Positions 9,136-60,646 are shown, counted from the first letter of the stretch. The stretch is DNA of 64,000 nt from Gammaproteobacteria bacterium (GCA_013041745.1 JABDRN010000061.1:2975-66974); one strand, 5' to 3'. Notes: generated from the letters alone by a model not told the origin. A program made the numbers and translations.

Positions 9136-9142
9136 GTACGCA

Positions 9143-9173
9143 CCGTAGCAGCGGATTATAATCCGCTGCTACG
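9143..9173. terminator. hairpin between convergent genes (bidirectional terminator candidate)
   Basis: 12-bp stem ccgtagcagcgg/ccgctgctacgg with a 7-nt loop. There is no clear T-run. Confidence 0.45.
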
Positions 9174-9187
9174 GCTGAGATATGTGC

Positions 9188-9709
9188 TTATATGCTATCT
9201 GCAAATAAAACAGTATCGATGGTCCATTCGTCTGCACCGGCGTGCAGTACCAGGCATGATGGCCCACCATGGGTACGCACCTTTCCTGACGCTCCAGGAT
9301 TGACTACCCACGGCTTTTCATCCTGATCGATGACTCTGTGATGGGTGTGGCCATAGACGATTATACGGGCTGATGTATGGCTCTCACGGAGTTGTTCATG
9401 AGCAGGATGATTGCCAAAACGGTGGCCGTGCTCGACAACCAGTAGGCCGCCGGGAAGTTCGAGTTCATCGTTCTCTGGCAGAGCGTTTACAACGGCAGAC
9501 TCTTCTGCTTTCCAGAAATCAGAGAAGTCATTGTTGCCGGCGACAGCGACCAGGCTGTCTTTGGGCTTTAGTTGAGATAAGACATGGGCATTGAAGATAT
9601 CACCGGCATGCACGATATGGTCACACTGGTTTACTGTCTCGGCGATCCTGGGGTCGAGAAAGCCATGCGAATCGGAGAGGATGCCTACTTTGACCGAGTT
9701 TTTGCTCAT
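9188..9709 (-). CDS. YfcE/MJ0936-type metallophosphoesterase
   Basis: Motifs ILSDSHG, HAGD, GNND, GH and GHTH occur in the canonical order. Confidence 0.8.
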   Translation of the reverse strand: MSKNSVKVGILSDSHGFLDPRIAETVNQCDHIVHAGDIFNAHVLSQLKPKDSLVAVAGNNDFSDFWKAEESAVVNALPENDELELPGGLLVVEHGHRFGNHPAHEQLRESHTSARIIVYGHTHHRVIDQDEKPWVVNPGASGKVRTHGGPSCLVLHAGADEWTIDTVLFADSI

Positions 9710-29165: not shown

Positions 29166-30308
29166 ATGCAATTAACCATAAACAAGATTGTTAAAGCTGC
29201 TGTAATCACAGCATTGGCCTCACCTTTATCAGCAGTTGCAGGTGGGATCACTTATAAAGATGGTGATGATTATTTAAAAGTCGGCGGTCGTATCCAGCTT
29301 CAGTACAACCAGGTTAAACCTGATGGAGGCGACACGACTGATGAGATATTCTTCAGGAGATTAAGGCCATACATCGAGGGCAGCACACATAAAGACTGGA
29401 AAGCCAAGATCCAGTGGGACATGGGCAAAGCTGAAGGGGAAAATGAGATCGCGGTCAAAGATGCCTATTTTCAGTACAAAGGAATGTCGAACGCAAAGCT
29501 GACTATCGGTAATGCTAACTTCCCTTTTTCACGTGAGTTTTTAACCTCGTCTAAATATCAGCAATTAGTCGAGCGTACATTTGTCGGTGACCATAATTAC
29601 GGAACTCCAGACCGTAATGTGGGTATCCATATGACTGGTAATACAGAGAGTAAAAAAGTCACCTGGGGTGCCTCAGGCACGGTCGCTTCGATAGATCCCG
29701 ATAACAAGAAGCTGGATTTTGATACACCGGTCAACAGAAATGATGATTTTAATGATGGTTTCATGGTCGGTGGCCGTGTTGATTTTCACCCCTTTGGTAA
29801 ATTGAAGTTTTCCCAGGGCGACTTCTCAGGCAAGACCAGGGCCACTATCGGTGTTGCTGCGTTCAGTTGGGGTAACGACGGCGACAACAATACCTATGCG
29901 CCTGGAGACAGTAAGGCGGATGTCGATTCTGTAACAGGCGTCGAAGTCAGTGGTGCGTTCCGCTCTTCTGGATTCTCGGTTGACGCCCAATATAATACCT
30001 TCGATGCAGACACTGTACTGGCAGGCATCACAGACGGTATCTACAAGAATGGTACGACGACACTGACCAATGCAGCAATCGAAGGTGGTTATATGATCAA
30101 TAATACCATCGAGGTCGTTGCTGGTTACCAGACCCAGGATGCCGATGGCTACACGACAGCCTGGAACCGCACATCAGTCGGCGCCAACTGGTTTATCAAC
30201 AAGCATGACACCAAGGTACAGCTGACCTACAGGATGGGTGAAAATCTAAATGGAGTCGAAAATGCTGATGAGGATGAAGTCTTCCTGCAGACACAGTTCG
30301 TCTTCTAA
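29166..30308 (+). CDS. phosphate-selective porin O/P-like outer-membrane protein
   Basis: Signal peptide; YLKVGGRIQLQYNQ resembles the OprO/OprP N-terminal strand. Beta-barrel periodicity and a C-terminal ...LQTQFVF. Confidence 0.6.
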   Translation: MQLTINKIVKAAVITALASPLSAVAGGITYKDGDDYLKVGGRIQLQYNQVKPDGGDTTDEIFFRRLRPYIEGSTHKDWKAKIQWDMGKAEGENEIAVKDAYFQYKGMSNAKLTIGNANFPFSREFLTSSKYQQLVERTFVGDHNYGTPDRNVGIHMTGNTESKKVTWGASGTVASIDPDNKKLDFDTPVNRNDDFNDGFMVGGRVDFHPFGKLKFSQGDFSGKTRATIGVAAFSWGNDGDNNTYAPGDSKADVDSVTGVEVSGAFRSSGFSVDAQYNTFDADTVLAGITDGIYKNGTTTLTNAAIEGGYMINNTIEVVAGYQTQDADGYTTAWNRTSVGANWFINKHDTKVQLTYRMGENLNGVENADEDEVFLQTQFVF

Positions 30309-30933: not shown

Positions 30934-31551
30934 CTATTGATTATCGCTGCCCCATATCTCCTGCAAACGTTGATCACGTCCGCATGCGAAGCGGTAATAT
31001 TGATAGCGTAAGGGATTCTTCTGATAATAATCCTGATGGTAATCTTCTGCTGGATAAAAAGTACTGGCTGGTAGAATTTCAGTGGCGATCTCGTCCTTGA
31101 ACGGTTTGTTACTGTTTAGCTCCTGCAGTGATCTTTCGATCTCAGCCTGCTGCTTCTCATCGAGATAATAGATGCCCGAGCGGTACTGGGAACCGGCATC
31201 ACAGAACTGGCGGTCGACAGCAACCGGGTCGATATTTTTCCAGAAGACATCCAGCAGTTCCGAATAGGTGATTTTCCCCGGGTCATATATGATCTCTATG
31301 GCTTCGGTATGGCCGGTGCTGCCAGCGGAAACTTCTTTATAAGTCGGGTTTTTTTTATGTCCCGCAGTATAGCCTGAGGTCGTTGAGATAACGCCGTCAA
31401 GTTTGTCGAACGGTGGCTCCATGCACCAGAAACAACCACCTGCAAAAATTGCGCTCTCAGTTTTTTGTGGCTTAGACGTTATTGCTCCCTGTTCAGATGC
31501 GAAAACGTGCGTTGTGAACAGGCTAAGTAAAAACAGTGTGACTAGTTTCAT
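30934..31551 (-). CDS. msrA: peptide-methionine (S)-S-oxide reductase, exported form
   Basis: Signal peptide followed by the GGCFWCME active-site motif. Confidence 0.9.
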   Translation of the reverse strand: MKLVTLFLLSLFTTHVFASEQGAITSKPQKTESAIFAGGCFWCMEPPFDKLDGVISTTSGYTAGHKKNPTYKEVSAGSTGHTEAIEIIYDPGKITYSELLDVFWKNIDPVAVDRQFCDAGSQYRSGIYYLDEKQQAEIERSLQELNSNKPFKDEIATEILPASTFYPAEDYHQDYYQKNPLRYQYYRFACGRDQRLQEIWGSDNQ

Positions 31552-33175: not shown

Positions 33176-34837
<1,662 letters not shown>

Positions 34838-35027: not shown

Positions 35028-35474
35028 TCAGTTGTCCATCAGCACACGCTCATCATATTCTGTTTCGAAGAATAGCTTGTGTTTTGCTTCCTCTTTGGCA
35101 AGGCCTTCTAACACTTCTTTGAGGTGGCTTTCCGGTACTTTAGCGGCCATGTCAGAGTAGAGCTTATGGGCAGCACGTTCTTTTTTCATGGCGATGATCA
35201 GTGCGTCCTGGTAGGTGATGTTATCGCTTGCCTCGACTTCCACCAGATAGTCCGAGATCTTCAGGTCCAGTACTTCCTGCTCGGGTGAGAGTTCGTGCTC
35301 GCCGGCCTTGACGTCGATCAGGATTTTCTTATGGCGTTTTTCTTCTTTAGAAAAATCCAGCAGTATCTTTTTCATGCCGGCTGTCTCGGCGCGTTGTGCA
35401 ACGTCTTCGTAAAAATCAGCTGCCTGTTGTTCCTGATCTATCGCGTAGTCCAGTATTTCATCAACGGTATTCAT
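35028..35474 (-). CDS. rubrerythrin/ferritin-like diiron four-helix-bundle protein
   Basis: Two ExxH motifs (EEKRH, EEAKH) with paired upstream Glu residues. There is no rubredoxin domain. It lies 31 nt downstream of the preceding gene. Confidence 0.6.
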   Translation of the reverse strand: MNTVDEILDYAIDQEQQAADFYEDVAQRAETAGMKKILLDFSKEEKRHKKILIDVKAGEHELSPEQEVLDLKISDYLVEVEASDNITYQDALIIAMKKERAAHKLYSDMAAKVPESHLKEVLEGLAKEEAKHKLFFETEYDERVLMDN

Positions 35475-35505: not shown

Positions 35506-37299
35506 CTATTTCTCTTCATATGCCGCGGGATTCAGATAACGGTCGATACCGCGTGCCGCATGGTGGCCATCTTCGATGGCGCTGATCGCATCAGCCGTGC
35601 TGTTGGCAAAATCACCGCCGACAAACACCTTTTCCAGCGTCGTGTGCTGGTATTCGCCCGGGGTAAATTTCCCCCATTCGATGGCAAATTCCTCATGCAT
35701 CTCTTTTGAGATGTAATCGAGATTACTGCCCTGACCGATCGCTGATATTATGCTGTCATATGTATCCGTGTGCATACGATCTTCCTGCAGCACCGGCCGC
35801 GGTCTGCCGCCTTTGGGGTCATCGACCATCTCGGCTTCTCCCCAGCGGATAGCGACCTGTTGCTCGCTGTCCGCACTCACTATCTCGACCGGTATCGCCT
35901 GCTGTACGATGCGGCAGCCTTCTTCCTGTGATTCATGGATCTCTTCTTCATCGGCCGGCATCTCACTGATGCGGCGGCGATACAGTATAGTGACTTCTGC
36001 ATCGAAACGACGTGATACACGTGCGGCATCCATGGCGACGTTACCACCGCCGATGACGGCTACTTTTTTACCTATGCCCGGGTCACGGCCATTAGCGACA
36101 TCAGCGAGTACCTGCAGACCGGATAAGACGCGTGGATGGTCTTCACCGTGAATGCGCATACTCGATGGCACCGATAGACCAGTAGACATGAATACCGCAT
36201 CATAGTTCTCCAGCAGCTGTTCAAATTTTATATCCTTGCCGATAGCGGTATTGTATTTGATTTCGACACCAAGTGAGACGATATAGTCGATATCCTTGTC
36301 CAGGTCGTTATCGGGCAGGCGATAACTCGGTACGCCATAGCGCAACATGCCGCCGGCAGATTCCTGTGCTTCGAATACGGTGACAGCATAACCTTTCTTA
36401 CGCAGGTAGTAGGCGGCACTCATGCCGCCGGGACCGGCACCGATGACAGCGATCTTTTTACCGTTTTCCGTTATCGTGTCAGCGAGGATACGCTGGTAGT
36501 CACTGGCGTCCACCTGGTCGACGATGAGACGTTTCAGCCAGCGAATGGCGACCGGCTCACCGAGTATGCCGACCGGGCATACCGATTCGCAGCGGCGAGT
36601 ACAGATCCGCCCGCAGGTCGCCGGGAAGGGGTTGGTGCGGTACATCAGCTGCAGGCCTTTTTCGTAGTTGCCGTCACGGATGCTGTGAATATAATCCGGT
36701 ACATCCATATGTGCCGGACAGGTAGCGACACAGATGCCGCATTCGACACAGCGGTCGGCTTCCTTTTTGGCCTGTTCTTCGCTGTAGCCTTTGACGACTT
36801 CTTCGAATGAGCTCACGCTTTCATTAGCAGGCAGCATCTCCATCTCGATGCGTTTGGGCGGATACAGGTGATAACCTTCAGCACGGCGATAACCATTTTC
36901 ATTGTCCTGCCAGGGTTTATCATCAACGCCGGCGGTGAAATGAAATACGGTCGGGTCTTCACTGATCCAGGCGTATTCGTTGCTCATGCGCAGTGAGGCA
37001 GCGGTACAGATGTCGACACATAATCCACACCAGCAGCAGCGGCCATAATCAAAACGCGGGCGCAGTCCGCTGTCGCCTTCACGACCCAGGTATTCTTCGA
37101 CCGCCACCATGTCGATGGCGTGGTTCTGGCAGATCTCGTGACAGCTGCCGCAGCCGACGCAGGTATCGGCGATGTTGATATGAAAACCGCGGTAAGCCGG
37201 TGCGCCAGGACGATCGATCGTTGGCCTTATCGAGGTGTATGGTTTTTCGAAGGCACGCTGCCAGACGAAGAAAGGTGAGAGCAGGTCTTTCAGGTTCAT
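35506..37299 (-). CDS. fusion of a NuoI/MbxN-like 2x[4Fe-4S] ferredoxin domain and a GltD/SudA-type NAD(P)H-dependent FAD oxidoreductase
   Basis: Residues about 40-115 carry CVGCGSCHEIC and CCWCGLCVDIC (NuoI-type). They are followed by RCVECGICVATCP...CGRICTRRCESVCP, IAVIGAGPGGMSAA (FAD) and VAVIGGGNVAMDAA (NADPH), as in glutamate synthase small-subunit-like proteins. Confidence 0.8.
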   Translation of the reverse strand: MNLKDLLSPFFVWQRAFEKPYTSIRPTIDRPGAPAYRGFHINIADTCVGCGSCHEICQNHAIDMVAVEEYLGREGDSGLRPRFDYGRCCWCGLCVDICTAASLRMSNEYAWISEDPTVFHFTAGVDDKPWQDNENGYRRAEGYHLYPPKRIEMEMLPANESVSSFEEVVKGYSEEQAKKEADRCVECGICVATCPAHMDVPDYIHSIRDGNYEKGLQLMYRTNPFPATCGRICTRRCESVCPVGILGEPVAIRWLKRLIVDQVDASDYQRILADTITENGKKIAVIGAGPGGMSAAYYLRKKGYAVTVFEAQESAGGMLRYGVPSYRLPDNDLDKDIDYIVSLGVEIKYNTAIGKDIKFEQLLENYDAVFMSTGLSVPSSMRIHGEDHPRVLSGLQVLADVANGRDPGIGKKVAVIGGGNVAMDAARVSRRFDAEVTILYRRRISEMPADEEEIHESQEEGCRIVQQAIPVEIVSADSEQQVAIRWGEAEMVDDPKGGRPRPVLQEDRMHTDTYDSIISAIGQGSNLDYISKEMHEEFAIEWGKFTPGEYQHTTLEKVFVGGDFANSTADAISAIEDGHHAARGIDRYLNPAAYEEK

Positions 37300-37313
37300 G
37301 ATATTTTCTCCGT

Positions 37314-38513
37314 CTACCTCTCGATCTCTGGCGGGTAAGTATGCAGCGATACCATCATGCCTGCGATATCAGCGATATTGTTGCCGACTGCGAGGCGCTC
37401 CATCACGGCGATGGCATGCGTATAACTCGGTCCGCGTACATGCACACGACGTACGAGTTCCGAACCATCGGTGACCATATAGTAACCATATTCACCACGG
37501 GTACACTCGGCTTTGACATAAGTTTCACCGGCAGGTACTTTCCAGTGTAATACATTGGGCATATCGGCCTGGAAGGCGCCATCCATCGGCATACGGTCTA
37601 GGCACTGGCGAATCAGGCTGATGCATTGCCTTGTTTCCTGTAGACGCAGGTAGGCACGTTCATAAGCATCTGAATCTGTACCGGTGACGATATCGAAGTC
37701 CAGTTGATCGTAGGCCAGATAAGGTTCATCTTTACGCAGGTCGCGTTTGACGCCACAGGCGCGTGCGTTAGGGCCGACGATACCGTAGGGATCGATCATT
37801 TCAGGCGGGATAATGGCGAGGCCTTTCGAGCGTGCTTTGAAAACGGTATTGTTAAACATCACACGTTCGATCTGATCGAGCAGTTTCTCAGCACCGTCCA
37901 TGATCTCTCGGGCACGACCCTCGAAACCATCGGGCAGGCCGGCACGTACGCCGCCGGGTACTATGTACATGTGGTAGATGCGGGCACCGGTCATTTCTTC
38001 GAACAGGTCGAGTACGTAGTCGCGATAGGCCAGTGTCCAGTTAGCGACGGTGTACTGGCCGAAGGCGCCGCCCTGGCCGCCGATCCACATCAGGAAACTG
38101 GCGAGGCGCATCATCTCGAGGTTCATGGTGCGCAGCCAGGTGGCACGCTCTGGTATCTCGATACCGCTGATTTCTTCTACCGCATGCGAGTACAGATATT
38201 CGTTGAATGTCGGTTCGGGTACCGCGATACGGCACACCACGGTAAAGTTCTGGATGAAGCTGCGGCGTTCCATCAGTTTTTCGAAACCGCGGTGCAGGTA
38301 GCCGACATGGGTCTTGCAGTCGATGATGGTGTCGCCGTCGAGCGTCAGCTCCAGTGACATGTTGCCGGTGATGCCCGGGTGCTGCGGTCCCTGCCACAGT
38401 TTGACGTATTTTCCTGAAGCCAGGTCGACAGGTTCGGGCTGGGCAAAATCCAGCGAGGCGGAGTGACCTGTTGAAATGGGGCTGCTGGTGGTACGGCCAA
38501 ATGGCAGTTTCAT
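37314..38513 (-). CDS. NuoD / group-4 hydrogenase large-subunit homologue lacking NiFe ligands
   Basis: GPQHPG..., HVGYLHRGFEKL, RIYHMYIVPGGVR and VHVRGPSY are NuoD/MbhL-like blocks. The N-terminal site reads VVCRIAVPE and the C-terminus reads HTYPPEIER instead of the Cys motifs. Confidence 0.8.
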   Translation of the reverse strand: MKLPFGRTTSSPISTGHSASLDFAQPEPVDLASGKYVKLWQGPQHPGITGNMSLELTLDGDTIIDCKTHVGYLHRGFEKLMERRSFIQNFTVVCRIAVPEPTFNEYLYSHAVEEISGIEIPERATWLRTMNLEMMRLASFLMWIGGQGGAFGQYTVANWTLAYRDYVLDLFEEMTGARIYHMYIVPGGVRAGLPDGFEGRAREIMDGAEKLLDQIERVMFNNTVFKARSKGLAIIPPEMIDPYGIVGPNARACGVKRDLRKDEPYLAYDQLDFDIVTGTDSDAYERAYLRLQETRQCISLIRQCLDRMPMDGAFQADMPNVLHWKVPAGETYVKAECTRGEYGYYMVTDGSELVRRVHVRGPSYTHAIAVMERLAVGNNIADIAGMMVSLHTYPPEIER

Positions 38514-39052
38514 TTCTCGTCCCCCCCGCGGTTTGGATACAGCTCTACTTTCATGTGGTCACGCGGCTCTTCGCTGTGCCGGCCTTCACGGTGGCCGAAA
38601 CGTTGCTCGCTGAATTCCTTGGTATCGAACTCGCGGCGCATCGGCGGTATATCGTCCCAGCCTTCCAGGCAGAAGTCTTCCTCGAGACGCGGACTGCCGG
38701 GGAAATTGATGCCGTACATCTCACGCAGTTCACGCTGGTAGGTCCATGCCTGTGCCCACAGCGTATGGATGGAGACCATGTCTTCATTCTCGCGGCTGAT
38801 ATCGACATGTACGCCCAGCGAGAGTTTTTTATCGTAGTTGTGCAGCATGTAGACCAGGGTGAAGATGCCGTCTTCGATATAGTCGATGCAGGTCATGAAA
38901 TTGAGGTGCGTGTAACCTTCACGGTCGCGCAGTTCACGGATCAGTGTCTCGGCGCTGTCTTTTTTGACCCTGAACGTCGTCAGCGCAGGTTTGCGCACGG
39001 TGATGTCATCGACACCAAAGTCACGCTGCAGTCTTTCCATCAAATCATTCAT
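38510..39052 (-). CDS. NuoC (30 kDa subunit)-like protein
   Basis: 180 aa; ...TCIDYIEDG...VYMLHN...IHTLWAQAWTYQRELREMYGINFPGSP is typical of the NuoC/MbhK family. There is a 4-nt overlap with the NuoD-like gene. Confidence 0.8.
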   Translation of the reverse strand: MNDLMERLQRDFGVDDITVRKPALTTFRVKKDSAETLIRELRDREGYTHLNFMTCIDYIEDGIFTLVYMLHNYDKKLSLGVHVDISRENEDMVSIHTLWAQAWTYQRELREMYGINFPGSPRLEEDFCLEGWDDIPPMRREFDTKEFSEQRFGHREGRHSEEPRDHMKVELYPNRGGDEK

Positions 39053-39098
39053 AGTTTCACTTATCGATTACCTGTTGCCCATTAGCAGCCAAATTCTG

Positions 39099-39731
39099 TT
39101 ACCAGTTATAGTCGGGCATATCCCAGTTCTTGATGACCTTCTTCTGGTTGGCCTTGTACCAGTCAAAGTTTTCTACATAACGGTTGGCGCCATCACATTC
39201 ACCCGCCTTGATCTTCTTCTGCAATGCCATGATGCTTGCAACCAGTGCTTCCGGGCGAGGCATACAACCAGTTGCGTAAAGATCGACCGGGATATACTGG
39301 TCGAACTGGTTGATGGTGTTGTAGCTGTCGAAATACATGCCGCCATTGATCGGGCAGATGCCGAGGCAGATGACGAACTTGGGTCCCTGCATCTGTTCAT
39401 AGCTACGGATGATGCGCTTCAGGGTTTTTACCGAGGCATAGCCGCCGATAATGAATACCGATGACTGTCTCGGGGTCGGCCGTCCGGCAACGCCGAAACG
39501 GTTGGCATCGAAGCGGGCCGTCATCAGTGGTCGCAGTTCGATGGCGCCGCAGCCGGTACCGAAGGCAAGGATCCATAAGGAATTGGCTCTTGCCCAGTTC
39601 GCAAAATCTTCTACCGCTTTAATAGGGTAAGGTTCATAGGCTCTTGGGCGAGCATTACTGAACAGCAACTGTTCCTCTTCCGTTAGACCAGAATTTTCCA
39701 GTGTGTCATCAGTGTTGAGACTATTTTTCAT
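39099..39731 (-). CDS. NuoB / hydrogenase small-subunit-like [4Fe-4S] protein
   Basis: SLWILAFGTGCGAIE, PRQSSVFIIGG, FVICLGICPINGGMY and VDLYATGCMPRPEAL are NuoB-family blocks. Confidence 0.85.
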   Translation of the reverse strand: MKNSLNTDDTLENSGLTEEEQLLFSNARPRAYEPYPIKAVEDFANWARANSLWILAFGTGCGAIELRPLMTARFDANRFGVAGRPTPRQSSVFIIGGYASVKTLKRIIRSYEQMQGPKFVICLGICPINGGMYFDSYNTINQFDQYIPVDLYATGCMPRPEALVASIMALQKKIKAGECDGANRYVENFDWYKANQKKVIKNWDMPDYNW

Positions 39732-39743
39732 ATTCAGTCCTCG

Positions 39744-40682
39744 TTAAGCAGTCAGCAGCATCTGTGCGTATATTATCGACATCACCCCGATAAGGGTCGG
39801 GATTTTAAAGAAGAAGCGAATCGCCTGATCGACCCTGAAGCGCGGGAAGGCAACACCGACGATGATCGCGACCATATAGATCAGGAAGGTTTTTATCATC
39901 AGTTCGCCCCAGCCGGTGGCTCCGCCGAAGAACAAGTTCATAAACAGTATCAGCTTGGTAGCACCGAACAGCGCACGGTTGGTCTGCAGTAGTGATAGAT
40001 AGGCGCTGTGGAATTCTGTCGGTGGACCGATAGGGATCTCCTGCGGCGCCAGGAAAATATCAAACGGTGAATAGCCAGTCATGCCGAGTAATGCCAGCAT
40101 CGCGGCCAGCGTGGCCACCCAGTTGGTGATCACTGTCCAGTTCTGCCAGCCACCTTGCTGGGCAGCGACGATCTCGGTGAGCGACAGAGTGTCGTACTGG
40201 ATGACGATGGAGATTACCGCCAGTGCAAACGGTACTTCATAGGCGGTCATCTGCGACAGGCCGCGGGCGATACCGATGGCGCTATAGGGGTGTCCGCTTT
40301 CACCGGCGCCCAGCGCCATACCCAGCTGGCCGAAAAACATGAAATAGATCACCAGGAACAGGTCACCGGCGGTGCTGAAATTGGAGAACATCTCATTGCC
40401 GTAGATAACCGGTATGAAAGCCAGTGTACCTATGCCGCCGGCGATACGAAAAACCGGGCCGAGGTAGAACATGATGCCGTGGCTGATAGCGGTACGTTTG
40501 AAGAAGTTCTTCAGAATATTAATGAACGGCTGTGAGTAGGGGATGCCGATACGGCCCTGGACCTTGGCGATGATACGCTCGATCAATGCCCCGACGAAAA
40601 GCCCGTAGATGGTTACTATCAATAAAGTAAGAGAAAAATAGCCGGCTTTGGACAGCCATTCGTTCATGCTATCGAAGATCAC
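39744..40682 (-). CDS. NuoH / MbhM-like membrane subunit
   Basis: 312 aa, polytopic; ERIIAKVQGRIGIPY and SPFDIFLAPQEI correspond to conserved NuoH loops. Confidence 0.8.
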   Translation of the reverse strand: MIFDSMNEWLSKAGYFSLTLLIVTIYGLFVGALIERIIAKVQGRIGIPYSQPFINILKNFFKRTAISHGIMFYLGPVFRIAGGIGTLAFIPVIYGNEMFSNFSTAGDLFLVIYFMFFGQLGMALGAGESGHPYSAIGIARGLSQMTAYEVPFALAVISIVIQYDTLSLTEIVAAQQGGWQNWTVITNWVATLAAMLALLGMTGYSPFDIFLAPQEIPIGPPTEFHSAYLSLLQTNRALFGATKLILFMNLFFGGATGWGELMIKTFLIYMVAIIVGVAFPRFRVDQAIRFFFKIPTLIGVMSIIYAQMLLTA

Positions 40683-43600
40683 AGCGCGAGTCCTCCATTT
40701 AACAGGAACATGGCAACAAAATACATGACAACGAATAGTGCATAGGTTTGACCGTTACCGTTATAGAAAATGCGCAGTGAAGAAGCCGTCGTGTGGCTCC
40801 ATTCGACTATAGTGTTCCAGAATGCGGTCGCCCTCGGTCTGACCAGGAAGCCGATAGCGCGGTCGTAATGCGCAAAAAAGTTATAGGCATAATGCGTTTC
40901 TTCAGGACGGCGTGGACGTTCAGCCGCGAACACGATATTGAACTGTTCGACTTTCTGGATCTTCAAGGTCAGTGAGATCAGCAGCAGCAGTATCAGCGGC
41001 ACCATCCAGACACCGCCGACCACGCCCATGATCATCGGTGCATTCCAGTAGCCGAAGTTTGTCACCATGGCGGTACCTTCCCACACCAGGGTATTAGCGA
41101 TCCACGGATCGATGGCGGCTGACAGCGGATCAAGCAGCAGTTTCGGATAGGCCGAGACCACCATGATGCAGGCGATCATCACACCCTGCGGGATTAGCAG
41201 GATGGCCGGGGCCTCGCGTAACTCGTGATGTTCGAGTTTGCGCTGACCGAGGAATACCGTCTGCAACAGGCGGAACATATAGAGGAATGCGATCGCGCTG
41301 GAGAAGAACGCCAGTGCCGCGATCCAGTACCAGCCCTTGTCCATCAGCGCGTTGAACATCATCCACTTACCGCCATAACCGGTCAGTGGTGGTACCCCGG
41401 ACATGGCGATGATCGCGATCATGGTAAAGGTGAAAGTGAAAGGCATGTTCTTGATCAGGCCGCCCATCTTATACATCAGGCGCTGGTTGGTGCGCAGGAT
41501 GATGCCAGCGGCCGATAGCAGCAAGATACCTTTGAACAGGAAGTGGTTGACCGTCATATACATCGCAGAGACCCAGCCGAGGTGGCTCATCAGTGCGACG
41601 CCGGTGACGATATAACCCAGCTGTCCCATGCTGGAGTAGGCGAGCAGGCGTTTCAGATCTTCCTGGAACACGGCCATCAGTGCACCGAAGGTGGCGGTGA
41701 GGATGCCTATCCAGCCGAGCACATAGGCCGGATCGAGGCCGATATCAGAACGTACACCGAGCTGGGCGGCGATGATGACCAGGCCGAAGACGCCAGCCTT
41801 GCTGACCACTGAAGAAAGCAGCGCGGTAAAGTCATCATCCGCTTCAGCATAGGCATCGGGCAACCAGATGTGAAAACCGAAGCCGCCCATCTTGATGATG
41901 AAACCAGCGGCCAGCAGGCTGAATATCATGGTCATCGACTCACCGCTATTACCAAGGCTGGATAGCAGCAGGCTGCCGGTCGCACCGTATGCGACGGCAA
42001 AGCCTGCGAAGATGAGATAGGCTGAACCGAGTGAGAACAGCAGGTAGCTCAGTGCTGGTTTCGCACCATCACGCCCGAGTGTAATCAGTAGATAAGAGCT
42101 CAGTGTCATCAGTTCCCAGCTGAAGAAAAATTCCAGCGAAGATTGCGCACGCAGCAGGGTCGCCAGTGACAGTAGCAGTACGGCGAGCAGCGGGTAGAAA
42201 CCTTTACGGTCATCTTTGCGGTACAGCGCCGCGATACTGACCAGCAGTCCGCCGCCGATCAGAAGGTAACTGAACAGACTGTTGATGCCGTCGAGGTCTT
42301 TTGTCAGCAGATAGCCGCCGATTGCTACCGCAACCAGCATCGGCAGGTTCTTGTAGCGACCGTGCACACCATCGATCAGCCAGAGTGCAAAGCCGGCGAC
42401 CAGCGGCAGATATAATTCGGGACTGGCGACCTGCATGACTGCTGCCATGACGTAACTGGTGGCAAACAATAAAAGTACTGCGATGGCGACCGGTAGCGGC
42501 TGCCAGAAACTAACGGGTATCTCGGCCTGCTCATCATCAGCTACTGATTGCTGTGCATAGCTGAACCAGCGGAACAGGTAAGCTGCCTCCAGTAATGAAC
42601 CGAGCAGGATAAGGCTGATCCAGCCAAACATATCGTTGCTGGCAAGCAGCATTACCAGCTCCCATTTCGCCCAGAAACCGGGAAATGGCGGCAAGCCGAC
42701 AAGTGCTGTCATCATGATGCCGAGCAGCAATAACATGCCACGGCGCTTGCTGATAACCGACCAGCCACGGATACTGCTGCTTTTGACCAGTCCTGCCAGC
42801 CAGAACAGCCCGGCCTTGGCGAACAGGTGATTAACAAAAAGGCCACCGACGATGAGATACATCTGGGACTGTATGTCTACTTGTGAATCGAGTTGTGCCA
42901 GTAATGCCATCGCCAGTGTCAGCAGCCCAATCTGGCCAATGGATGAATAACCCAGCAGGCGCTTTGTATTGTCCTGTTTCAGACCGATGATGTTGGAAAA
43001 CAGGAAAGTGAGGCCGCCGATGAACGCGATGCTATGCAGGAAATCACCCGCCAGAGGTAACAGTTTATAGACGGCAAAGAACATGCCTGCCGAAACGCCG
43101 ACCGAGATCAGCGAGGCGATACCCGTAGACGCCGTTTCGTAGACATCAAGCCCCCAGCCATTGGCAGGGTAAGGTTTAAGCTCGATGAGCAGGCCGGTGA
43201 GCACGAAAAGTGTTGCGATAAAGCCGATCGGACCGCTGATCAGTTCCTGGTTGGCGATGATGTCATCGATGTTTAATGTACCTGTCTGGTAGTAGATGAA
43301 TATGGTGCCGAGCAGGAAGAATGCGGATGCGATCGAGGTCGCGACGATGTATTTGAAACCTGCGGCCAGTACACTGCCGGAACGCTCCATGCCGATCAGC
43401 GCATAGGTTGCTATCGAAGTGATCTCGATAAAGATAAACAGGTTGAACAGGTCGCGGGTCATCACCATGCCATTGATGCCCATCACCAGTATCAGGTAGA
43501 GCAGCAGGGCAGAAGCGTGTTCTTTTAATCGAGGCAGGTAATGCCATGCACCCAGCAGAGCTGCGGTATTGACCGCGAGTACGATACCGCCTTCGAGCAG

Positions 43601-43855
43601 GCCGAAGCGCAAGTTGATAGAAAACGGCGGCTTGATGCCCGCGGTCTCGATATCGATAGCAGTTGCACCATTGATGATTCCAAACAGGTTGAAGCCGGCG
43701 ATCCCTACCATACAGGCCAGGGCCAGCAGGAACACCAGGATTGCAGAACCGCGATGTGCCCGGTCGAATAATGGGATCAGGAAGCCTGCACCCAGTGCCA
43801 GTACATAGATGCCTAAAGGATGCAGCAGTAGGTCTGTTATGGTCGCTGTTACCAT
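40679..43855 (-). CDS. fused tandem MrpD/NuoL-N-like antiporter subunits
   Basis: About 1058 aa with two successive proton-antiporter modules, roughly residues 1-480 and 490-1000. The ATG at 43855 overlaps the MrpC stop (ATGGTAA). The track start at 43870 is a GTG. Confidence 0.8.
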   Translation of the reverse strand: MVTATITDLLLHPLGIYVLALGAGFLIPLFDRAHRGSAILVFLLALACMVGIAGFNLFGIINGATAIDIETAGIKPPFSINLRFGLLEGGIVLAVNTAALLGAWHYLPRLKEHASALLLYLILVMGINGMVMTRDLFNLFIFIEITSIATYALIGMERSGSVLAAGFKYIVATSIASAFFLLGTIFIYYQTGTLNIDDIIANQELISGPIGFIATLFVLTGLLIELKPYPANGWGLDVYETASTGIASLISVGVSAGMFFAVYKLLPLAGDFLHSIAFIGGLTFLFSNIIGLKQDNTKRLLGYSSIGQIGLLTLAMALLAQLDSQVDIQSQMYLIVGGLFVNHLFAKAGLFWLAGLVKSSSIRGWSVISKRRGMLLLLGIMMTALVGLPPFPGFWAKWELVMLLASNDMFGWISLILLGSLLEAAYLFRWFSYAQQSVADDEQAEIPVSFWQPLPVAIAVLLLFATSYVMAAVMQVASPELYLPLVAGFALWLIDGVHGRYKNLPMLVAVAIGGYLLTKDLDGINSLFSYLLIGGGLLVSIAALYRKDDRKGFYPLLAVLLLSLATLLRAQSSLEFFFSWELMTLSSYLLITLGRDGAKPALSYLLFSLGSAYLIFAGFAVAYGATGSLLLSSLGNSGESMTMIFSLLAAGFIIKMGGFGFHIWLPDAYAEADDDFTALLSSVVSKAGVFGLVIIAAQLGVRSDIGLDPAYVLGWIGILTATFGALMAVFQEDLKRLLAYSSMGQLGYIVTGVALMSHLGWVSAMYMTVNHFLFKGILLLSAAGIILRTNQRLMYKMGGLIKNMPFTFTFTMIAIIAMSGVPPLTGYGGKWMMFNALMDKGWYWIAALAFFSSAIAFLYMFRLLQTVFLGQRKLEHHELREAPAILLIPQGVMIACIMVVSAYPKLLLDPLSAAIDPWIANTLVWEGTAMVTNFGYWNAPMIMGVVGGVWMVPLILLLLISLTLKIQKVEQFNIVFAAERPRRPEETHYAYNFFAHYDRAIGFLVRPRATAFWNTIVEWSHTTASSLRIFYNGNGQTYALFVVMYFVAMFLLNGGLAL

Positions 43856-44229
43856 TTCGACTCCGTGCACTCATCGATATTCAGCGTGTTACGTGCTTTA
43901 AATATACGCACCGCAAACGCTAGCATGACTGCGGTTACACCGAGACCGATGACGATTGCGGTGAGTACCAGCGCGGAAGGCACCGGGTCGACAACCCTGT
44001 TAACGGCATCGGCGATCGGCACCGCATCATTGATGATCGGAGCTGTACCGCCGGTGACATAGCCGATAGAGACCATGACCATGTGGATGCCGGTATCCAT
44101 CAATGAAAAACCGATGATCATACGGATTATGTTGCGCTGCGTCAGCATGCCCCACATGCCGATCAAAATCAGGCCAAGGCCGCTGCACAGCACGATGAGT
44201 GATATCGGGATGTCAGTGAGCATGTTCAT
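43849..44229 (-). CDS. MrpC/MnhC (NuoK-like) subunit
   Basis: 126 aa with three TM segments; GMLTQRNIIRMIIGFSLMDTG is typical of MnhC. Confidence 0.8.
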   Translation of the reverse strand: MNMLTDIPISLIVLCSGLGLILIGMWGMLTQRNIIRMIIGFSLMDTGIHMVMVSIGYVTGGTAPIINDAVPIADAVNRVVDPVPSALVLTAIVIGLGVTAVMLAFAVRIFKARNTLNIDECTESKW

Positions 44230-44969
44230 ACCGGGCCGGTGTCCTCCTTGCGGAAACGGTCGAGTACCGCACTGAGTTCAAATCCTACCTTGAGGCCGAC
44301 GAAGAGGTAGATCAATGGTATCGCTCCGGCACTGAACAGGCTGCCGTAAGTGCCGAGGTCCATGATACGGTTGTCGAGGAAACCGCCCGCGAGAAAGACA
44401 CCGAGTACGCCGACGACGACATAGCTGAAACCGGACATGGATTCGGTGATGGCGATCATCAGGCGACTGATATGTGATTCAGGCAGTGCGAGCAGCAGGA
44501 ACATGGTGCCGGAAGCGATGATCGCACCGCCCTGAAAACCACCGCCGGGTGACAGGTGGCCGTTCATGAATACGTATACACCGAACAGGACTACCATCGG
44601 CAGCAGCAGTTCGGTCGCTGTTTCGACGATCTCGCTGGCGGGTTTGTGTACGCCCGCTGTCTCTTCTGCACGGTCTCCCTGTTCCAGGCCTTTGTCATCA
44701 TCCTGGTTGCGTCGGGTGCGGCGTAGCAGCAAGCCGACACCGGCAGCTGAGATGAATAGTACGGTCACCTCACCCAGTGTATCCAGACCACGGTAGGTGA
44801 CGACGACCGCGGTGACCAGGTTGGGCGCACCCAGTTCCTGCGGACCTTTGTCAGCATAGTAGTGGCCGAGCTTGGACAGCGTCGTGTTCTCGGTATAGTT
44901 GGCGACGAGGTTGAAAAAGATCATCGCCATAAGAGCCAGCATTGCAAAAATGAAGATCCGTTTGATCAT
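44226..44969 (-). CDS. MrpB/MnhB-domain membrane subunit
   Basis: NLVTAVVVTYRGLDTLGEVTVLF is the MnhB motif. It is followed by a charged loop and extra TM segments. Confidence 0.7.
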   Translation of the reverse strand: MIKRIFIFAMLALMAMIFFNLVANYTENTTLSKLGHYYADKGPQELGAPNLVTAVVVTYRGLDTLGEVTVLFISAAGVGLLLRRTRRNQDDDKGLEQGDRAEETAGVHKPASEIVETATELLLPMVVLFGVYVFMNGHLSPGGGFQGGAIIASGTMFLLLALPESHISRLMIAITESMSGFSYVVVGVLGVFLAGGFLDNRIMDLGTYGSLFSAGAIPLIYLFVGLKVGFELSAVLDRFRKEDTGPV

Positions 44970-45349
44970 TTTGCCGGTACCCCGTTGCTTTCTTCTGCCG
45001 TATCCTTATCGGTTTCATTCTCCTCGGCTCTGCCAAGCTGATCGATGACCGTAGTTTCGGTTTCAAAAATGCCGATAGAGTGTGCTGCGCGTGCCAGTGC
45101 ATGTGAGGACACCGGATTGGTCAGCATGACGAAGAATATCAGGATGATCAGTTTCAAGGTCCAGGCCGGGTGTAGAAAAGCCAGTCCGATAAGGACCATG
45201 ATAGTTCCCAGCGTCGTCGCTTTGGTACCGGTCTGGATTCGGTTATAGGTATCTGGCATACGCAATACACCGAGCCCGGCCGAGAACAGGAACAGAGAGC
45301 CGATGATGAGAAAAAGGTTGCCGATGATTTCGCTGAGAAGATGGGTCAT
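44966..45349 (-). CDS. MrpG/MnhG subunit
   Basis: IGSLFLFSAGLGVLRMPDTYNRIQTGTKATTLG is the MnhG signature. Confidence 0.8.
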   Translation of the reverse strand: MTHLLSEIIGNLFLIIGSLFLFSAGLGVLRMPDTYNRIQTGTKATTLGTIMVLIGLAFLHPAWTLKLIILIFFVMLTNPVSSHALARAAHSIGIFETETTVIDQLGRAEENETDKDTAEESNGVPAK

Positions 45350-45612
45350 TCGTCATCCTCGCTTTCAAGCTTTTGCGTCTTGCGGATGGCGTAGAGAAAA
45401 ATCATGGTGGTGAGACCAGAACCGATAGACGCCTCGGTCATCGCCACATCAGGTGCCGCCAGCACGACATAGACCACGGATGCGAACAGGCTGGCGAGAC
45501 CGGCACTGACCACTGCGCTGACCATATTATTCAGCATCACGGCGAGCAGTCCACTGATGAGGATGCCTGCGCAAAGCACGACAGTAAGTAATGTGATGAC
45601 GAGTGATGACAT
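45346..45612 (-). CDS. MbhD-like (DUF4040) small membrane subunit
   Basis: 88 aa counted from the ATG at 45612. The track's longer start at 45696 would overlap mrpF by 77 nt. It has three TM segments with APDVAMTEASIGSGLTT. Confidence 0.55.
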   Translation of the reverse strand: MSSLVITLLTVVLCAGILISGLLAVMLNNMVSAVVSAGLASLFASVVYVVLAAPDVAMTEASIGSGLTTMIFLYAIRKTQKLESEDDE

Positions 45613-45619
45613 GAGCAGA

Positions 45620-45895
45620 TCAGATTCCTTTTTCCAGGTAACGGGCGACAGCGAGTACTCCGAGAAAACTGAGCAAACCGTAAACCAGCGCGACATCGAG
45701 GTAGATGAAGCGCTCAGCCTGGTGTGCCAGCAGTGCTATCAACGCGATCGTAACGATGGTCAACAGGTCGATCGCAACCACCCGGTCAACGGTATCGGGG
45801 CCGATCACCAGGCGAACGATACCGAACACGATGCTGAAAAATATCAGCACGGAAGAGATGATTATGGTTATTTCTGTCATTCCAAAATCAGTCAT
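45620..45895 (-). CDS. MrpF/MnhF subunit
   Basis: 91 aa; RLVIGPDTVDRVVAIDLL...YLDVALVYGLLSFLGVLAVARYLE. Confidence 0.75.
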   Translation of the reverse strand: MTDFGMTEITIIISSVLIFFSIVFGIVRLVIGPDTVDRVVAIDLLTIVTIALIALLAHQAERFIYLDVALVYGLLSFLGVLAVARYLEKGI

Positions 45896-45912
45896 CGCTG
45901 CTCATTCCCAGG

Positions 45913-46422
45913 TTATCCATATATCACCTTGAGGATTTTTTCGAAACGAGCGGAGATGGCCTCGGTTGCGGCAACCGGGTCAGTCGCAGCTATGTTTATC
46001 CAGTGGATGAACAGCGAGTCATCTTTGATATCAACGACCAGCGTGCCCGGTGTCAAGGTAATACTGTTGGCCAGAGCCAAGCGGCCCATAGGTGATTTAA
46101 GCTCGGTCTTGATCTCGACGATTCCCGGCCTGATATCGATGCGTGGTGAGAACACCAGACGCATGACGTTAAGATTAGCCTTTATCAGTTCGATGAAGAA
46201 TACAGCGAGGTACACCAGGTAATGATAGATAACGGTCGGTGACCAGCGGATCACACGGTACACCCTGGCGAAGGTGGAAAATGCCAGCGCGATAACAGCG
46301 CTGACTACGACACCTGTTATCACGGTATCTGAAGCTAGCGAGCCATTGGCTATCAGCCAGATGAGCAGCAGCGTCAACCAGAGGTTGATGAACTGTAATG
46401 GAATGTTCTTGGTACCCGGCAT
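45913..46422 (-). CDS. MrpE/MnhE subunit
   Basis: 169 aa; ELIKANLNVMRLVFSPRIDIRPGIV...LANSITLTPGTLVVD is typical of MnhE. Confidence 0.75.
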   Translation of the reverse strand: MPGTKNIPLQFINLWLTLLLIWLIANGSLASDTVITGVVVSAVIALAFSTFARVYRVIRWSPTVIYHYLVYLAVFFIELIKANLNVMRLVFSPRIDIRPGIVEIKTELKSPMGRLALANSITLTPGTLVVDIKDDSLFIHWINIAATDPVAATEAISARFEKILKVIYG

Positions 46423-46823: not shown

Positions 46824-48275
46824 ATGGAAAAGGCAGATATCGGGCTTATCGGACTTGCAGTAATGGGGCAAAACCTTGTGCTGAATATGGCAGACCACGG
46901 CTATCGCGTGGCTGTATTCAACCGCACCACCAGCAAGGTCGACGAATTCATCGAGGGCCCGGCAAAAGGTACAAGCATTATTGGTACGCACAGCATGGAA
47001 GAACTTGTGGCATCACTGGCTACACCACGTAAAGTCATGCTGATGGTAAAGGCGGGTGAGGTCGTCGACCGTTTCATCGATATGCTGCTGCCATTACTGG
47101 AGCCGGGCGATGTTATTATCGATGGCGGCAATTCTCATTATCCTGATTCGACGCGACGTACCACCTACCTGAGGGAGAAAGGCCTGCGTTTTATCGGAAC
47201 CGGGGTTTCCGGTGGTGAAGAAGGTGCGCGTCATGGGCCATCCATCATGCCCGGCGGTGATGCTGATGCCTGGCCGCTGGTAAAAGATATCTTCCAGGCG
47301 GTATCAGCAAAAGTTGATGGCGAACCGTGCTGCCAGTGGGTAGGGCAGGATGGTGCCGGGCATTTCGTGAAGATGGTGCATAACGGTATCGAATATGGCG
47401 ATATGCAGCTCATCTGCGAAGCCTATTCATTGATGGAGAATGCGCTCGGCATGAGCTGTGATGAGATGCATGAAGTATTCAAAGAGTGGAATAGCGGCGT
47501 CCTCGACTCATACCTGATCGATATCACCAAAGATATCCTCGCCATGAAAGATGAAGACGGCGAACCGCTGGTCGATAAGATACTCGATACAGCCGGCCAG
47601 AAAGGTACCGGCAAATGGACCGGTATCAGCGCGCTCGATCTCGGTGTACCGCTGACGCTGATCGGCGAATCGGTGTTTGCACGAGTGCTGTCATCACTAA
47701 AAGATGAGCGTGTTCGTGCTTCTGCAATACTTGGCCCACGACCTGATATCTCTTTCAGCGGCAGCCGTGATGAGATCATAGAGGCGCTTCGTGATGCGCT
47801 GTATGCATCCAAGATCATCTCCTATGCACAGGGCTTTATGCTGATGCGAGAAGCTGCTAAGGAGATGGCCTGGGATCTGAATTACGGTGAGATCGCACTG
47901 ATGTGGCGCGGTGGCTGTATCATACGCAGCACCTTCCTCGGCAATATAAAAGATGCCTATGAGAAGGACCCTGGGCTGGAAAACCTGGCGCTGGACTCCT
48001 TCTTCAGCGAAGCGCTTAAATCTGCAGAAGCGGGCTGGCGAAAAGCCGTGGTGCTGGCGGTAGAGAACGGTATTCCGGCACCGGCATTTTCATCGGCATT
48101 ATCCTATTTCGATGGCTACCGCAGTGAGCGCCTGCCGGCGAACCTGTTACAGGCACAGCGCGACTACTTCGGTGCGCATACATACGAGCGTCTGGATGCA
48201 GCGCGAGGCGAGTTCTTCCACACAGACTGGACCGGCCATGGCGGCAAAGTTGCTTCGACGACTTATGAGGTGTAA
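46824..48275 (+). CDS. gnd: 6-phosphogluconate dehydrogenase (decarboxylating)
   Basis: [22 protein letters not shown], the full-length 483 aa and many conserved Gnd blocks (e.g. [14 protein letters not shown]). Confidence 0.95.
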
Positions 48276-60354: not shown

Positions 60355-60646
60355 ATGAAATCAATCATATCCTTTGTATCTGTACTGTTGCAATACTTGC
60401 TTCAATAAAAGCCGGGTTATGTTTCTTTTTAGGTCAGTGCATTAAGTATTTGCATTATGTTGGTGCATACATGTTTTATAAAGTGCATATTGCGGCTTCG
60501 TTTAATACTGTTAGTGTAATGAGAATAAGGCTTTTGATAAAAATTTAGTTATGGAATAGAACTGGAACGTTTATTGCAGTGATATCGATGAACTGTTAGT
60601 GAGTCAGATAAATGGCGATTCAGATAAATGTTTTTCGGGGCAATCC

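Follow-up and report, generated by a model that had tools for sequence, protein, structure and literature searches.

Cysteine pattern of the catalytic core in a bacterial MBS/Mbx-type complex with a fused GltD-like flavoprotein

What kind of enzyme has a catalytic core in which the cysteines follow neither the [NiFe] hydrogenase pattern nor that of complex I? This question is raised by positions 37314-39731 (minus strand) of a 64,000-nucleotide stretch of DNA from a gammaproteobacterium (GCA_013041745.1, JABDRN010000061.1:2975-66974), referred to at its full length as the window. Three genes in this interval encode a NuoB-like subunit of 210 amino acids (aa), a NuoC-like subunit of 180 aa, and a NuoD-like subunit of 399 aa, and they lie in the middle of a densely packed operon of 13 genes, all in one direction, that runs from 46422 to 35028 on the minus strand. 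A preliminary description of the sequence had interpreted the cysteine pattern as a re-ligated proximal cluster next to an altered active-site pocket, of the kind expected for a new substrate chemistry. The patterns are real and are mostly explained by known work: the complex is, with near certainty, a bacterial member of the MBS/Mbx family, i.e., of the membrane-bound sulfur-reductase type, most likely linked to reduced nicotinamide adenine dinucleotide phosphate (NADPH), and its gene layout was described in 2015 (Degli Esposti, 2015; PMC4758237). The modest value of the locus lies in four points: confirmation of MBS mutagenesis, an invariant Cys94 in the large subunit, relatives with a tandem cysteine, and a linkage to pentose-phosphate genes.

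The family assignment is based on both core subunits and on the gene content. In the Protein Data Bank (PDB), the best match of the NuoD-like subunit, a hydrogenase large-subunit homologue without a NiFe site (MbsL; 37314..38513, minus strand), is MbsL of the Pyrococcus furiosus MBS (6u8y_L; expect value [E] 8e-94, 318 bits), followed by Nqo4 (1e-66, 228 bits), MbhL (3e-42, 148 bits), and HycE (3e-27, 98 bits). The NuoB-like proximal [4Fe-4S] cluster subunit (MbsJ; 39099..39731, minus strand) likewise matches 6u8y_J (E 5e-62, 213 bits) ahead of NdhK (1e-37, 133 bits), MbhJ (1e-23, 87 bits), and HycG (2e-15, 60 bits), and no structure closer than 6U8Y was found in the PDB. Identity to these best solved matches is approximately 50-56%. 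AlphaFold2 models of the two subunits (mean predicted local distance difference test score of 78 for the small and 82 for the large subunit) were used for secondary structure and fold matching, and the MbsJ model retrieved 6u8y_J first, with a template modelling score of 0.80 and 55% identity. Furthermore, an exhaustive search among representatives at 50% identity recovered a compact MbsJ-type group with the motif GCMPRP, followed by a sharp drop to NuoB proteins with GCPPRP. The gene set and order of the operon match P. furiosus mbsA-N in Pfam and PDB comparisons: a full Mrp-type module (MrpE, MrpF, MrpG, MbhD, MbhE/MnhB, and a NuoK-like subunit), two pumps, and the M-J-K-L-N subunits are encoded in one operon, and the same subunit families follow each other in essentially the same order as in MBS (A, B, C/D, E, G, H, H', M, J, K, L, N; 6U8Y; 2020, PMC7684303). 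The order is that of the archaeal locus L081, save for a swap of D and C and the fusion of H and H'.

Conservation was followed in a scan at one genome per species, in which 217 relatives were found and 80 loci were kept. These derive from uncultured Gammaproteobacteria (among them Thiotrichales, Thiogranum, Ectothiorhodospiraceae, Chromatiaceae, Arenicellales, and Methylococcales) and from Spirochaetes, Cloacimonadota, and one Zixibacteriota genome; between 74 and 77 genomes were readable per MbsJ position and 79 or 80 per MbsL position. The same conservation picture was obtained from 120 + 120 database homologues, and the entire operon, including its two gene fusions (MbsH-MbsH' and MbsN-GltD), is kept in every related locus that extends far enough. 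Residues were aligned with the P. furiosus MBS chains (from the PDB alignments), Thermus thermophilus Nqo4, Escherichia coli NuoB and NuoCD, and HycG and HycE of E. coli K-12, the last two standing in for MbhJ and MbhL as the [NiFe] hydrogenase reference.

The candidate ligands of the proximal cluster lie in three motifs of MbsJ, all on the minus strand: AFGTGCGAIE (39537..39566, with G58 at 39558-39560, C61 at 39549-39551, and G62 at 39546-39548), FVICLGICPINGG (39339..39377, with C122 at 39366-39368 and C126 at 39354-39356), and GCMPRPE (39249..39269, with C156 at 39264-39266 and M157 at 39261-39263). G58 aligns with the first cysteine of the hydrogenase CxxC motif in HycG and with C25 of P. 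furiosus MbsJ, C61 with the second CxxC cysteine, which is also the first cysteine of the complex I tandem, and G62 with the second tandem cysteine (GTGCG here versus GLSCC in NuoB). C126 and C156 take the remaining two canonical ligand positions in the alignment with NuoB and HycG, and a gapless alignment over residues 40-200 superimposes C61, C126, and C156 on C28, C93, and C123 of P. furiosus MbsJ. The residues G58, T59, G60, and C61 are invariant in 74 of 74 genomes, C126 in 75 of 75, and C156 together with M157 in 77 of 77; GCMPRP itself is found in all 77 and in every MBS-type representative, complex I having GCPPRP. A conserved fourth cysteine was sought at positions 58, 62, and 122 across 74-75 genomes, and none was found. 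Position 62 is Gly in 64 and Cys in 10 of 74 genomes, and position 122 is Ala in 52, Gly in 15, Cys in 6, and Ser in 2, i.e., other than Cys in 69 of 75, so that the pair of cysteines in the second motif represents a lineage-specific substitution. The same position is Ser in E. coli NuoB and HycG and Ala in P. furiosus MbsJ. Because C122 varies among relatives and sits in the middle of β-strand 119-126 of the model, four residues ahead of C126, it does not qualify as a ligand, and there is no re-ligation of the cluster. At the level of sequence, the proximal [4Fe-4S] cluster is thus predicted to be bound by only three cysteines (C61, C126, and C156), and one cluster iron is expected to be without a cysteine ligand. 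The ligand loop has no gap relative to MbsJ of 6u8y_J and is therefore short as in MBS; HycG carries a two-residue insertion there.

The relatives record a stepwise loss of the first cysteine, from CTGC in archaeal-type and some bacterial proteins through VTGC in one lineage to GTGC in the window clade. Furthermore, ten relatives (L008, L012-L018, L020, and L037, with MbsJ genes near 8780-9450 of each locus) have FGTGCCSIE together with GCMPRP, i.e., a Gly-x-x-Cys-Cys tandem of the complex I type within an otherwise MBS-type subunit, and they may help explain the origin of the tandem-cysteine N2 site of complex I.

In MbsL, the former L1 NiFe motif reads VVCRIAVPEPTF (38205..38240, minus strand; C94 at 38232-38234, followed by R95, A97 at 38223-38225, V98 at 38220-38222, and E100 at 38214-38216), and the former L2 motif reads HTYPPEIER at the C-terminus (37317..37343, minus strand; Y393 at 37335-37337 and E396 at 37326-37328). 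Aligned with HycE, R-V-C-G-I-C corresponds to R95-I-A97-V-P-E100 and D-P-C-Y-S-C-T-D-R to H-T-Y393-P-P-E396-I-E-R; NiFe ligand positions 1-4 are therefore A97, E100, Y393, and E396. The sole cysteine of the L1 region, C94, lies one residue ahead of the conserved Arg95 and off the ligand positions, in a short loop joining helices 86-93 and 99-116 of the model. This Arg is the one that neighbours the cluster in complex I. The quinone-site residues His38 and Tyr87 of Nqo4 are replaced by Thr49 (38367..38369, minus strand) and Val98. T49, C94, R95, V98, and E100 are invariant in 80 of 80 genomes and E396 in 79 of 79. Position 97, by contrast, is Ala in 56 and Cys in 24 of 80 (the Cys form occurring in Spirochaetes, Cloacimonadota, and Zixibacteria), and position 393 is Tyr in 77 and Cys in 2 of 79, both of the latter from Cloacimonadota. 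C94 is shared with other bacterial lineages (L085 and L087) and is Leu82 in P. furiosus, Pro in Nqo4, and Asp in HycE. A97 aligns with C85 of P. furiosus MbsL, and Y393 and E396 align with C385 and D388, so that the vestigial NiFe cysteine pair of MBS is not retained, intermediates being present among relatives; at NiFe positions 2 and 4, the acidic E100 and E396 correspond to E88 and D388.

These alignments bear out most of what the preliminary description had read by eye. The NuoD-like subunit lacks both hydrogenase cysteine pairs, the single cysteine of the L1 region and the HTYPPEIER terminus are both in the translated minus-strand open reading frame (ORF), and, since all four ligand positions are other than Cys, the protein is not a [NiFe] hydrogenase. 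The first NuoB-like motif, GTGCGAIE, has a single cysteine (C61) with neither tandem nor CxxC, and the cysteine of GCMPRPE is retained. The four N2 cysteines and the quinone-binding residues are not all present, which upholds the motif placement. The second motif, given as ICLGICPINGG, has the two reported cysteines, of which only C126 qualifies as a ligand; mapping on the predicted models placed C94 and C122 by secondary structure and gave no support to ligation by C122.

Work on the P. furiosus MBS indicates what such a site may do. In its structure, the proximal [4Fe-4S] cluster is held only by MbsJ C28, C93, and C123; C25 is too distant from the cluster, the ligand loop being shorter than in MBH, and the vestigial NiFe cysteines C85 and C385 of MbsL are approximately 12 Å from the cluster (PMC7684303). 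The C25A and C85A/C385A enzymes are as active as the wild type, whereas removal of the non-cysteinyl iron abolishes activity reversibly (PMC7684303). G58, A97, and Y393 of the window proteins fall at exactly these dispensable positions, C25, C85, and C385; with the three ligands kept, the non-canonical pattern is the MBS pattern at its functional minimum, and whether C85 and C385 are retained varies without being required for function. The locus is thus a natural replicate of the MBS mutagenesis, in which three dispensable cysteines were lost and the three cluster-holding ones were kept, and it strengthens the model in which the iron-sulfur cluster is the catalyst. The broader proposals of the preliminary description fare differently: the supposedly re-ligated cluster has the same three-cysteine, site-differentiated form as in the solved MBS, and the supposed new substrate chemistry in effect re-derives the mechanism of an orthologue. 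Sulfane sulfur reacting there, as it suggested, is nevertheless the best guess available, as the known MBS mechanism and not as a novelty.

Resemblance to other relatives of this fold is partial. Like P. furiosus MBS, the window complex combines three cysteine ligands, a short loop, GCMPRP, acidic residues at NiFe positions 2 and 4, and no quinone His/Tyr; unlike MBS, it has Gly, Ala, and Tyr at the positions of C25 in MbsJ and of C85 and C385 in MbsL, the invariant C94 in place of Leu82, a fused MbsH-MbsH' subunit of 1063 aa, an additional rubrerythrin-like gene, and a mesophilic bacterial host. With the quinone module of complex I (Nqo4/Nqo6 or NuoCD/NuoB), it shares the fold, the NuoB loop length, Gly at the first hydrogenase cysteine, the absence of all four NiFe cysteines, and the Arg ahead of the former L1 motif. 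It differs in having G62 at the second tandem cysteine (three ligands versus four), Thr and Val for His38 and Tyr87, and GCMPRP for GCPPRP, in the lack of a NuoEFG module, and in its Mrp-type membrane arm. Canonical complex I (NDH-1) was rejected as a candidate on the absence of the tandem cysteine and of the quinone His38 and Tyr87. Group 4 [NiFe] hydrogenases (P. furiosus MBH, 6CFW; E. coli Hyd-3/FHL, 7Z0S) are homologous in the peripheral arm, in the membrane anchor, and, for MBH, in the Mrp module; the window complex is without the four NiFe cysteines, has Gly at the first CxxC cysteine and a shorter loop, and is far less similar to MBH (E 3e-42 for MbhL and 1e-23 for MbhJ). A [NiFe] hydrogenase was likewise rejected, the L1 RxCGxCxxxH and L2 DPCxxCxxR pairs of E. 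coli HycE being absent. Mbx has furthermore been counted as one type of Ehr complex (PMC6349859), i.e., kin of group 4 hydrogenases with Mrp-like subunits and without Ni/Fe-binding residues. Ehr is a loose umbrella, within which the window complex falls into the MBS/Mbx branch, with its own putative NADPH input module and no formate dehydrogenase partner.

What most distinguishes the complex, and was missed by the preliminary description, is a GltD-type module fused to the next subunit. In P. furiosus MBS, ferredoxin is the donor and MbsN stands alone; in the window, a 597-aa fusion protein (35506..37299, minus strand; Pfam and PDB matches) joins both parts. Residues 6-110 form an MbsN/NuoI-like portion with two [4Fe-4S] clusters (6u8y_N, E 1.5e-16). 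Residues ~160-590 match StnC (8oh5_C, E 2e-87), Thermotoga maritima NfnB (4ylf_B, 4e-82), P. furiosus NfnI-L (5jca_L, 1e-81), and GltD (6s6s_G, 4e-53), the closest of these at around 1e-82 to 1e-87; unlike in those proteins, the module is covalently fused to the ferredoxin-like MbsN subunit. As in them, a Fer4_20 domain with two [4Fe-4S] clusters is followed by two Rossmann motifs, GAGPGG for flavin adenine dinucleotide (FAD) at 287 and GGGNVA for NAD(P)H at 417, and then by YRRR at 440; the fusion protein has three CxxCxxCxxxC motifs in all. The module can be aligned at 40-50% with the NADPH-binding, GltD-like portions of StnC, NfnB, and NfnI, and all 69 of the 69 loci readable here have YRRR after the second Rossmann motif. 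The YRR arginines of GltD and NfnB bind the 2'-phosphate of NADPH. A GltD/NfnB-like module with YRRR argues for NADPH as input, and the electron donor is most likely NADPH and not ferredoxin. Electron bifurcation by this NfnB-like module is considered unlikely, as the operon contains no NfnA-like partner that would form a second branch. One locus, L083, combines CTGC with the MbsN-GltD fusion and rubrerythrin, which indicates that the fusion arose before the CxxC cysteine was lost.

The fusion places the window complex in the bacterial "mbx-like" subtype. In mbx-like operons of Thermotoga and Proteobacteria, a gltD-related flavoprotein occupies the NuoI position, and a rubrerythrin is often the last gene (Degli Esposti, 2015; PMC4758237). 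These operons, the T. maritima MBX (PMC9431562), and the Mrp-Mbx of the Riftia symbiont (PMC11636981) share with the window complex the Mrp module, homologues of NuoH, NuoB, NuoC, and NuoD, the gltD-related flavoprotein, and the occurrence in sulfur-oxidising Gammaproteobacteria. According to the literature, their NuoD homologues keep vestigial NiFe cysteines, whereas the gammaproteobacterial clade of the window has lost both. None of these complexes has been purified. Members of the NADPH-linked subtype are widely distributed among sulfur-cycling Gammaproteobacteria, Spirochaetes, Cloacimonadota, and Zixibacteria.

The gene neighbourhood suggests where the NADPH might come from. In the window, gnd, encoding an NADP+-dependent 6-phosphogluconate dehydrogenase (46824..48275, plus strand; NCBIfam TIGR00873, E 4e-233), diverges from the operon, and pgm, encoding a phosphoglucomutase (33176..34813, minus strand; Pfam PGM domains), lies directly downstream. 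A gnd gene is near the operon in 11 related loci and pgm downstream in nine; altogether, 19 gammaproteobacterial loci have zwf, gnd, tal, or pgm next to the operon, in at least four arrangements, namely gnd upstream with pgm downstream, zwf immediately upstream, tal-zwf-gnd downstream (zwf-gnd without tal in L036), and gnd upstream with zwf downstream. Loci named for this pentose-phosphate and glycogen-exit linkage are L001, L002, L008, L009, L011, L018, L019, L029-L031, L033, L034, L036, L037, and L040, in addition to the window. That a single pathway recurs in differing arrangements points to a functional link to NADPH supply, and suggests NADPH derived from the oxidative pentose-phosphate (OPP) pathway as the donor. 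No pentose-phosphate genes were found beside the operon in the anaerobe loci (spirochaete, Cloacimonadota, and Zixibacteria), where the neighbours (genes for regulators, a peptidase, a glycosylase, and the like) offered no informative partner. No report of a link between this operon and pentose-phosphate genes was found in the literature; the zwf/gnd/tal/pgm linkage provides a concrete hypothesis for both donor and physiological role.

On these grounds, the complex may carry out NADPH-linked reduction of sulfane sulfur or polysulfide at the three-cysteine cluster, coupled to ion pumping, a proposal for which we regard the balance of evidence as even. Briefly, hydride from NADPH would pass to the FAD of the GltD/NfnB-like module, and electrons would cross four [4Fe-4S] clusters (two of Fer4_20 and two of the MbsN portion) on their way to the proximal cluster. 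With its open iron, this cluster would reductively split an S-S bond in a polysulfide or an organic sulfane, within a hydrophobic chamber formed by MbsL, MbsJ, and MbsM, and the redox step would drive the proton pumps of the fused MbsH-MbsH' subunit and the Na+/H+ module of Mrp type. In sulfur-oxidising gammaproteobacterial carriers, the NADPH would probably be supplied by the OPP pathway. Expression data from related systems bear on this: T. maritima mbxA is up 4.4-fold with elemental sulfur (S0) (PMC9431562), and this mbx is of the GltD type according to the architecture described earlier (PMC4758237). In the sulfur-oxidising Riftia symbiont, a putative Mrp-Mbx shows co-expression with reductive tricarboxylic acid cycle genes, hydrogenases, and sulfur-globule proteins, its direction in vivo being stated as unknown (PMC11636981). 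The mbx-like family is also found in fermentative Spirochaetes and Cloacimonadota, and its occurrence in fermenters, together with the OPP linkage, favours reduction of sulfane over the opposite direction.

Several points weigh against this proposal. Sulfane or polysulfide as the acceptor derives from homology and expression data, and the preference for NADPH over NADH from a motif and neighbouring genes; the literature yielded neither a biochemical nor a structural study on any GltD-fused member. Energetics is the main weakness. Reduction of polysulfide by ferredoxin yields 41 kJ per two electrons for MBS with two pumps; NADPH provides far less, yet both pump modules are kept, which would suit a higher-potential acceptor or reverse operation, although cellular ratios may make up the difference. 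Furthermore, C94 is invariant in the bacterial clade and Leu in P. furiosus, so that the pocket is not identical to that of MBS, and in the GTGCC relatives a four-cysteine, N2-like ligation could be allowed by the sequence.

A more specific form of NADPH-linked sulfane reduction would make the complex a dedicated respiratory entry point for NADPH in sulfur-storing, sulfur-oxidising Gammaproteobacteria, in which stored glycogen degraded under anoxia would yield NADPH through pgm and the OPP pathway; the fused GltD module would oxidise this NADPH and the electrons would reduce stored S0 or polysulfide at the three-cysteine cluster, with ion pumping and conservation of energy. We hold this extension only tentatively. 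Within it, MbsL Cys94 could be a persulfide-handling residue, and the GTGCC relatives could be living intermediates toward the tandem-cysteine N2 site of complex I. If true, it would explain at the molecular level how such bacteria reduce S0 anaerobically.

Among the competing explanations, reverse operation survives best, and we consider it rather unlikely. An ion gradient would push electrons from sulfide/polysulfide (approximately -270 mV) to NADP+ (-320 mV), supplying NADPH for carbon fixation and bypassing quinone and complex I. The small forward driving force of NADPH, despite the retention of two pump modules and the Mrp module, would be accommodated, the carriers include Thiotrichales, Thiogranum, Chromatiaceae, and Ectothiorhodospiraceae, and the Endoriftia MBX direction in vivo, stated as unknown, leaves room for it (PMC11636981). 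The flanking zwf and gnd, however, encode enzymes that make NADPH, which fits consumption by the complex better than production; the same architecture occurs in fermentative anaerobes without a need for reverse electron flow, and T. maritima mbx is induced while S0 is being reduced.

It is also unlikely that the complex is an ion-pumping NADPH:quinone oxidoreductase with a non-canonical quinone site, through which NADPH would enter the respiratory chain. Such a reaction would have ample driving force for two pumps. The wide hydrophobic chamber is common to MBS and complex I (PMC7684303), the MbsJ loop length and Gly58 resemble complex I, and ten relatives have the full GxxCC tandem; gammaproteobacterial carriers probably have quinones. 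Nevertheless, the equivalents of His38 and Tyr87 are Thr and Val in all 80 genomes, MbsL and MbsJ of MBS are far closer than any Nuo or Ndh subunit, and the family is kept in Sphaerochaeta-type spirochaetes and Cloacimonadota, which are fermentative.

In the older view of Mbx as a ferredoxin:NAD(P)+ oxidoreductase, proposed for mbx-like operons with the gltD-related subunit (PMC4758237), the GltD module would be an NADP+-reducing exit, and the MbsL/MbsJ pocket would receive no third substrate. This is improbable: both partners would connect at the distal end of the chain, and electrons would bypass the proximal cluster and the coupling site, yet these are strictly conserved. Furthermore, later work showed that the archaeal prototype reduces sulfane and is no ferredoxin:NADP+ oxidoreductase (PMC7684303).

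The rubrerythrin-like gene that ends the operon raises the prospect of an oxidant-detoxifying sink, in which electrons of NADPH would reach H2O2 or O2 through the rubrerythrin-like protein or by leakage from the open cluster. The gene encodes a diiron protein of 148 aa without a rubredoxin domain (35028..35474, minus strand; Pfam Rubrerythrin, E 5e-13). It follows the fusion gene in gammaproteobacterial loci, some spirochaete loci, and L083, a rubrerythrin link was noted in 2015 (PMC4758237), and msrA is nearby in the window. We consider a sink quite improbable, since most Cloacimonadota and many spirochaete loci keep the whole complex without rubrerythrin and a 13-subunit ion-pumping machine is unnecessary for peroxide reduction. 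Because MBS loses activity on oxidation, the rubrerythrin is more simply explained as protection of an oxidation-labile three-cysteine cluster. Weakest of all, and hardly credible, is four-cysteine re-ligation, with C122 of ICLGIC standing in for the missing first-motif cysteine in a new cluster environment: MbsJ does have four cysteines across its three motifs, but the Ala, Gly, or Ser of close relatives that keep all else, the mid-strand position of C122, and the Ser or Ala of the reference proteins speak against it.

The remaining operon genes, all on the minus strand, complete the MBS-type set. The first encodes an MbsA/MrpE-like membrane subunit (45913..46422; Pfam MNHE, E 5e-39), whose position is kept in related loci. 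It is followed by MbsB/MrpF-like (91 aa, 45620..45895; MrpF_PhaF, E 3e-18), MbsD/MbhD-like (45346..45612; MbhD, E 3e-18, residues 44-108 of a 116-aa ORF), MbsC/MrpG-like (44966..45349; PhaG_MnhG_YufB, E 9e-26), MbsE with MbhE and MnhB domains (44226..44969; MnhB, E 4e-22, and MbhE, E 2e-10), and MbsG/NuoK/MrpC-like (43849..44229; Oxidored_q2, E 3e-24). The MbhD-like ORF was called at 45346-45696, overlapping the MrpF ORF, and homologues align only from approximately residue 28-42; the true start is probably Met29 (codon 45610-45612). The order MbhD-MrpG is that of Gammaproteobacteria and is reversed (MrpG-MbhD) in archaea, Spirochaetes, and Cloacimonadota. The fused double antiporter-like subunit MbsH-MbsH' (40679..43870) has two Proton_antipo_M stretches (E 7e-88); it is fused throughout the 80 related genomes, and other MBS loci, archaeal as well as bacterial (L081, L083, and L085), encode the two halves separately (496 + 621 aa). 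The MbsM/NuoH-like membrane anchor (39744..40682; NADHdh, E 5e-48) precedes MbsJ, and the MbsK/NuoC-like gene (38510..39052; Complex1_30kDa, E 6e-24) lies between those of MbsJ and MbsL.

The G+C content of the operon (window 36000-46000) is 0.54-0.55, compared with 0.43-0.49 in the flanks, which may be due to horizontal acquisition or to the codon bias of membrane proteins. A few kilobases downstream of the rubrerythrin-like gene is msrA, encoding a methionine sulfoxide reductase (30934-31551, minus strand); taken together, the two genes may point to oxidative stress as a theme around a cluster that is oxidation-labile. Farther from the operon, a 1124-aa ORF (60599-63973, plus strand) has no NCBIfam match at E 1e-10, and a 728-aa protein (54347-56533, minus strand) has a weak partial match to glutamine synthetase (type I/type III, E ~1e-15). 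Two unusually long phosphate ABC permeases, one PstC-like (732 aa) and one PstA-like (559 aa), are encoded at 22847-26721 (minus strand), and a gene of the phosphate-selective porin O/P family lies nearby (29166-30308, plus strand).

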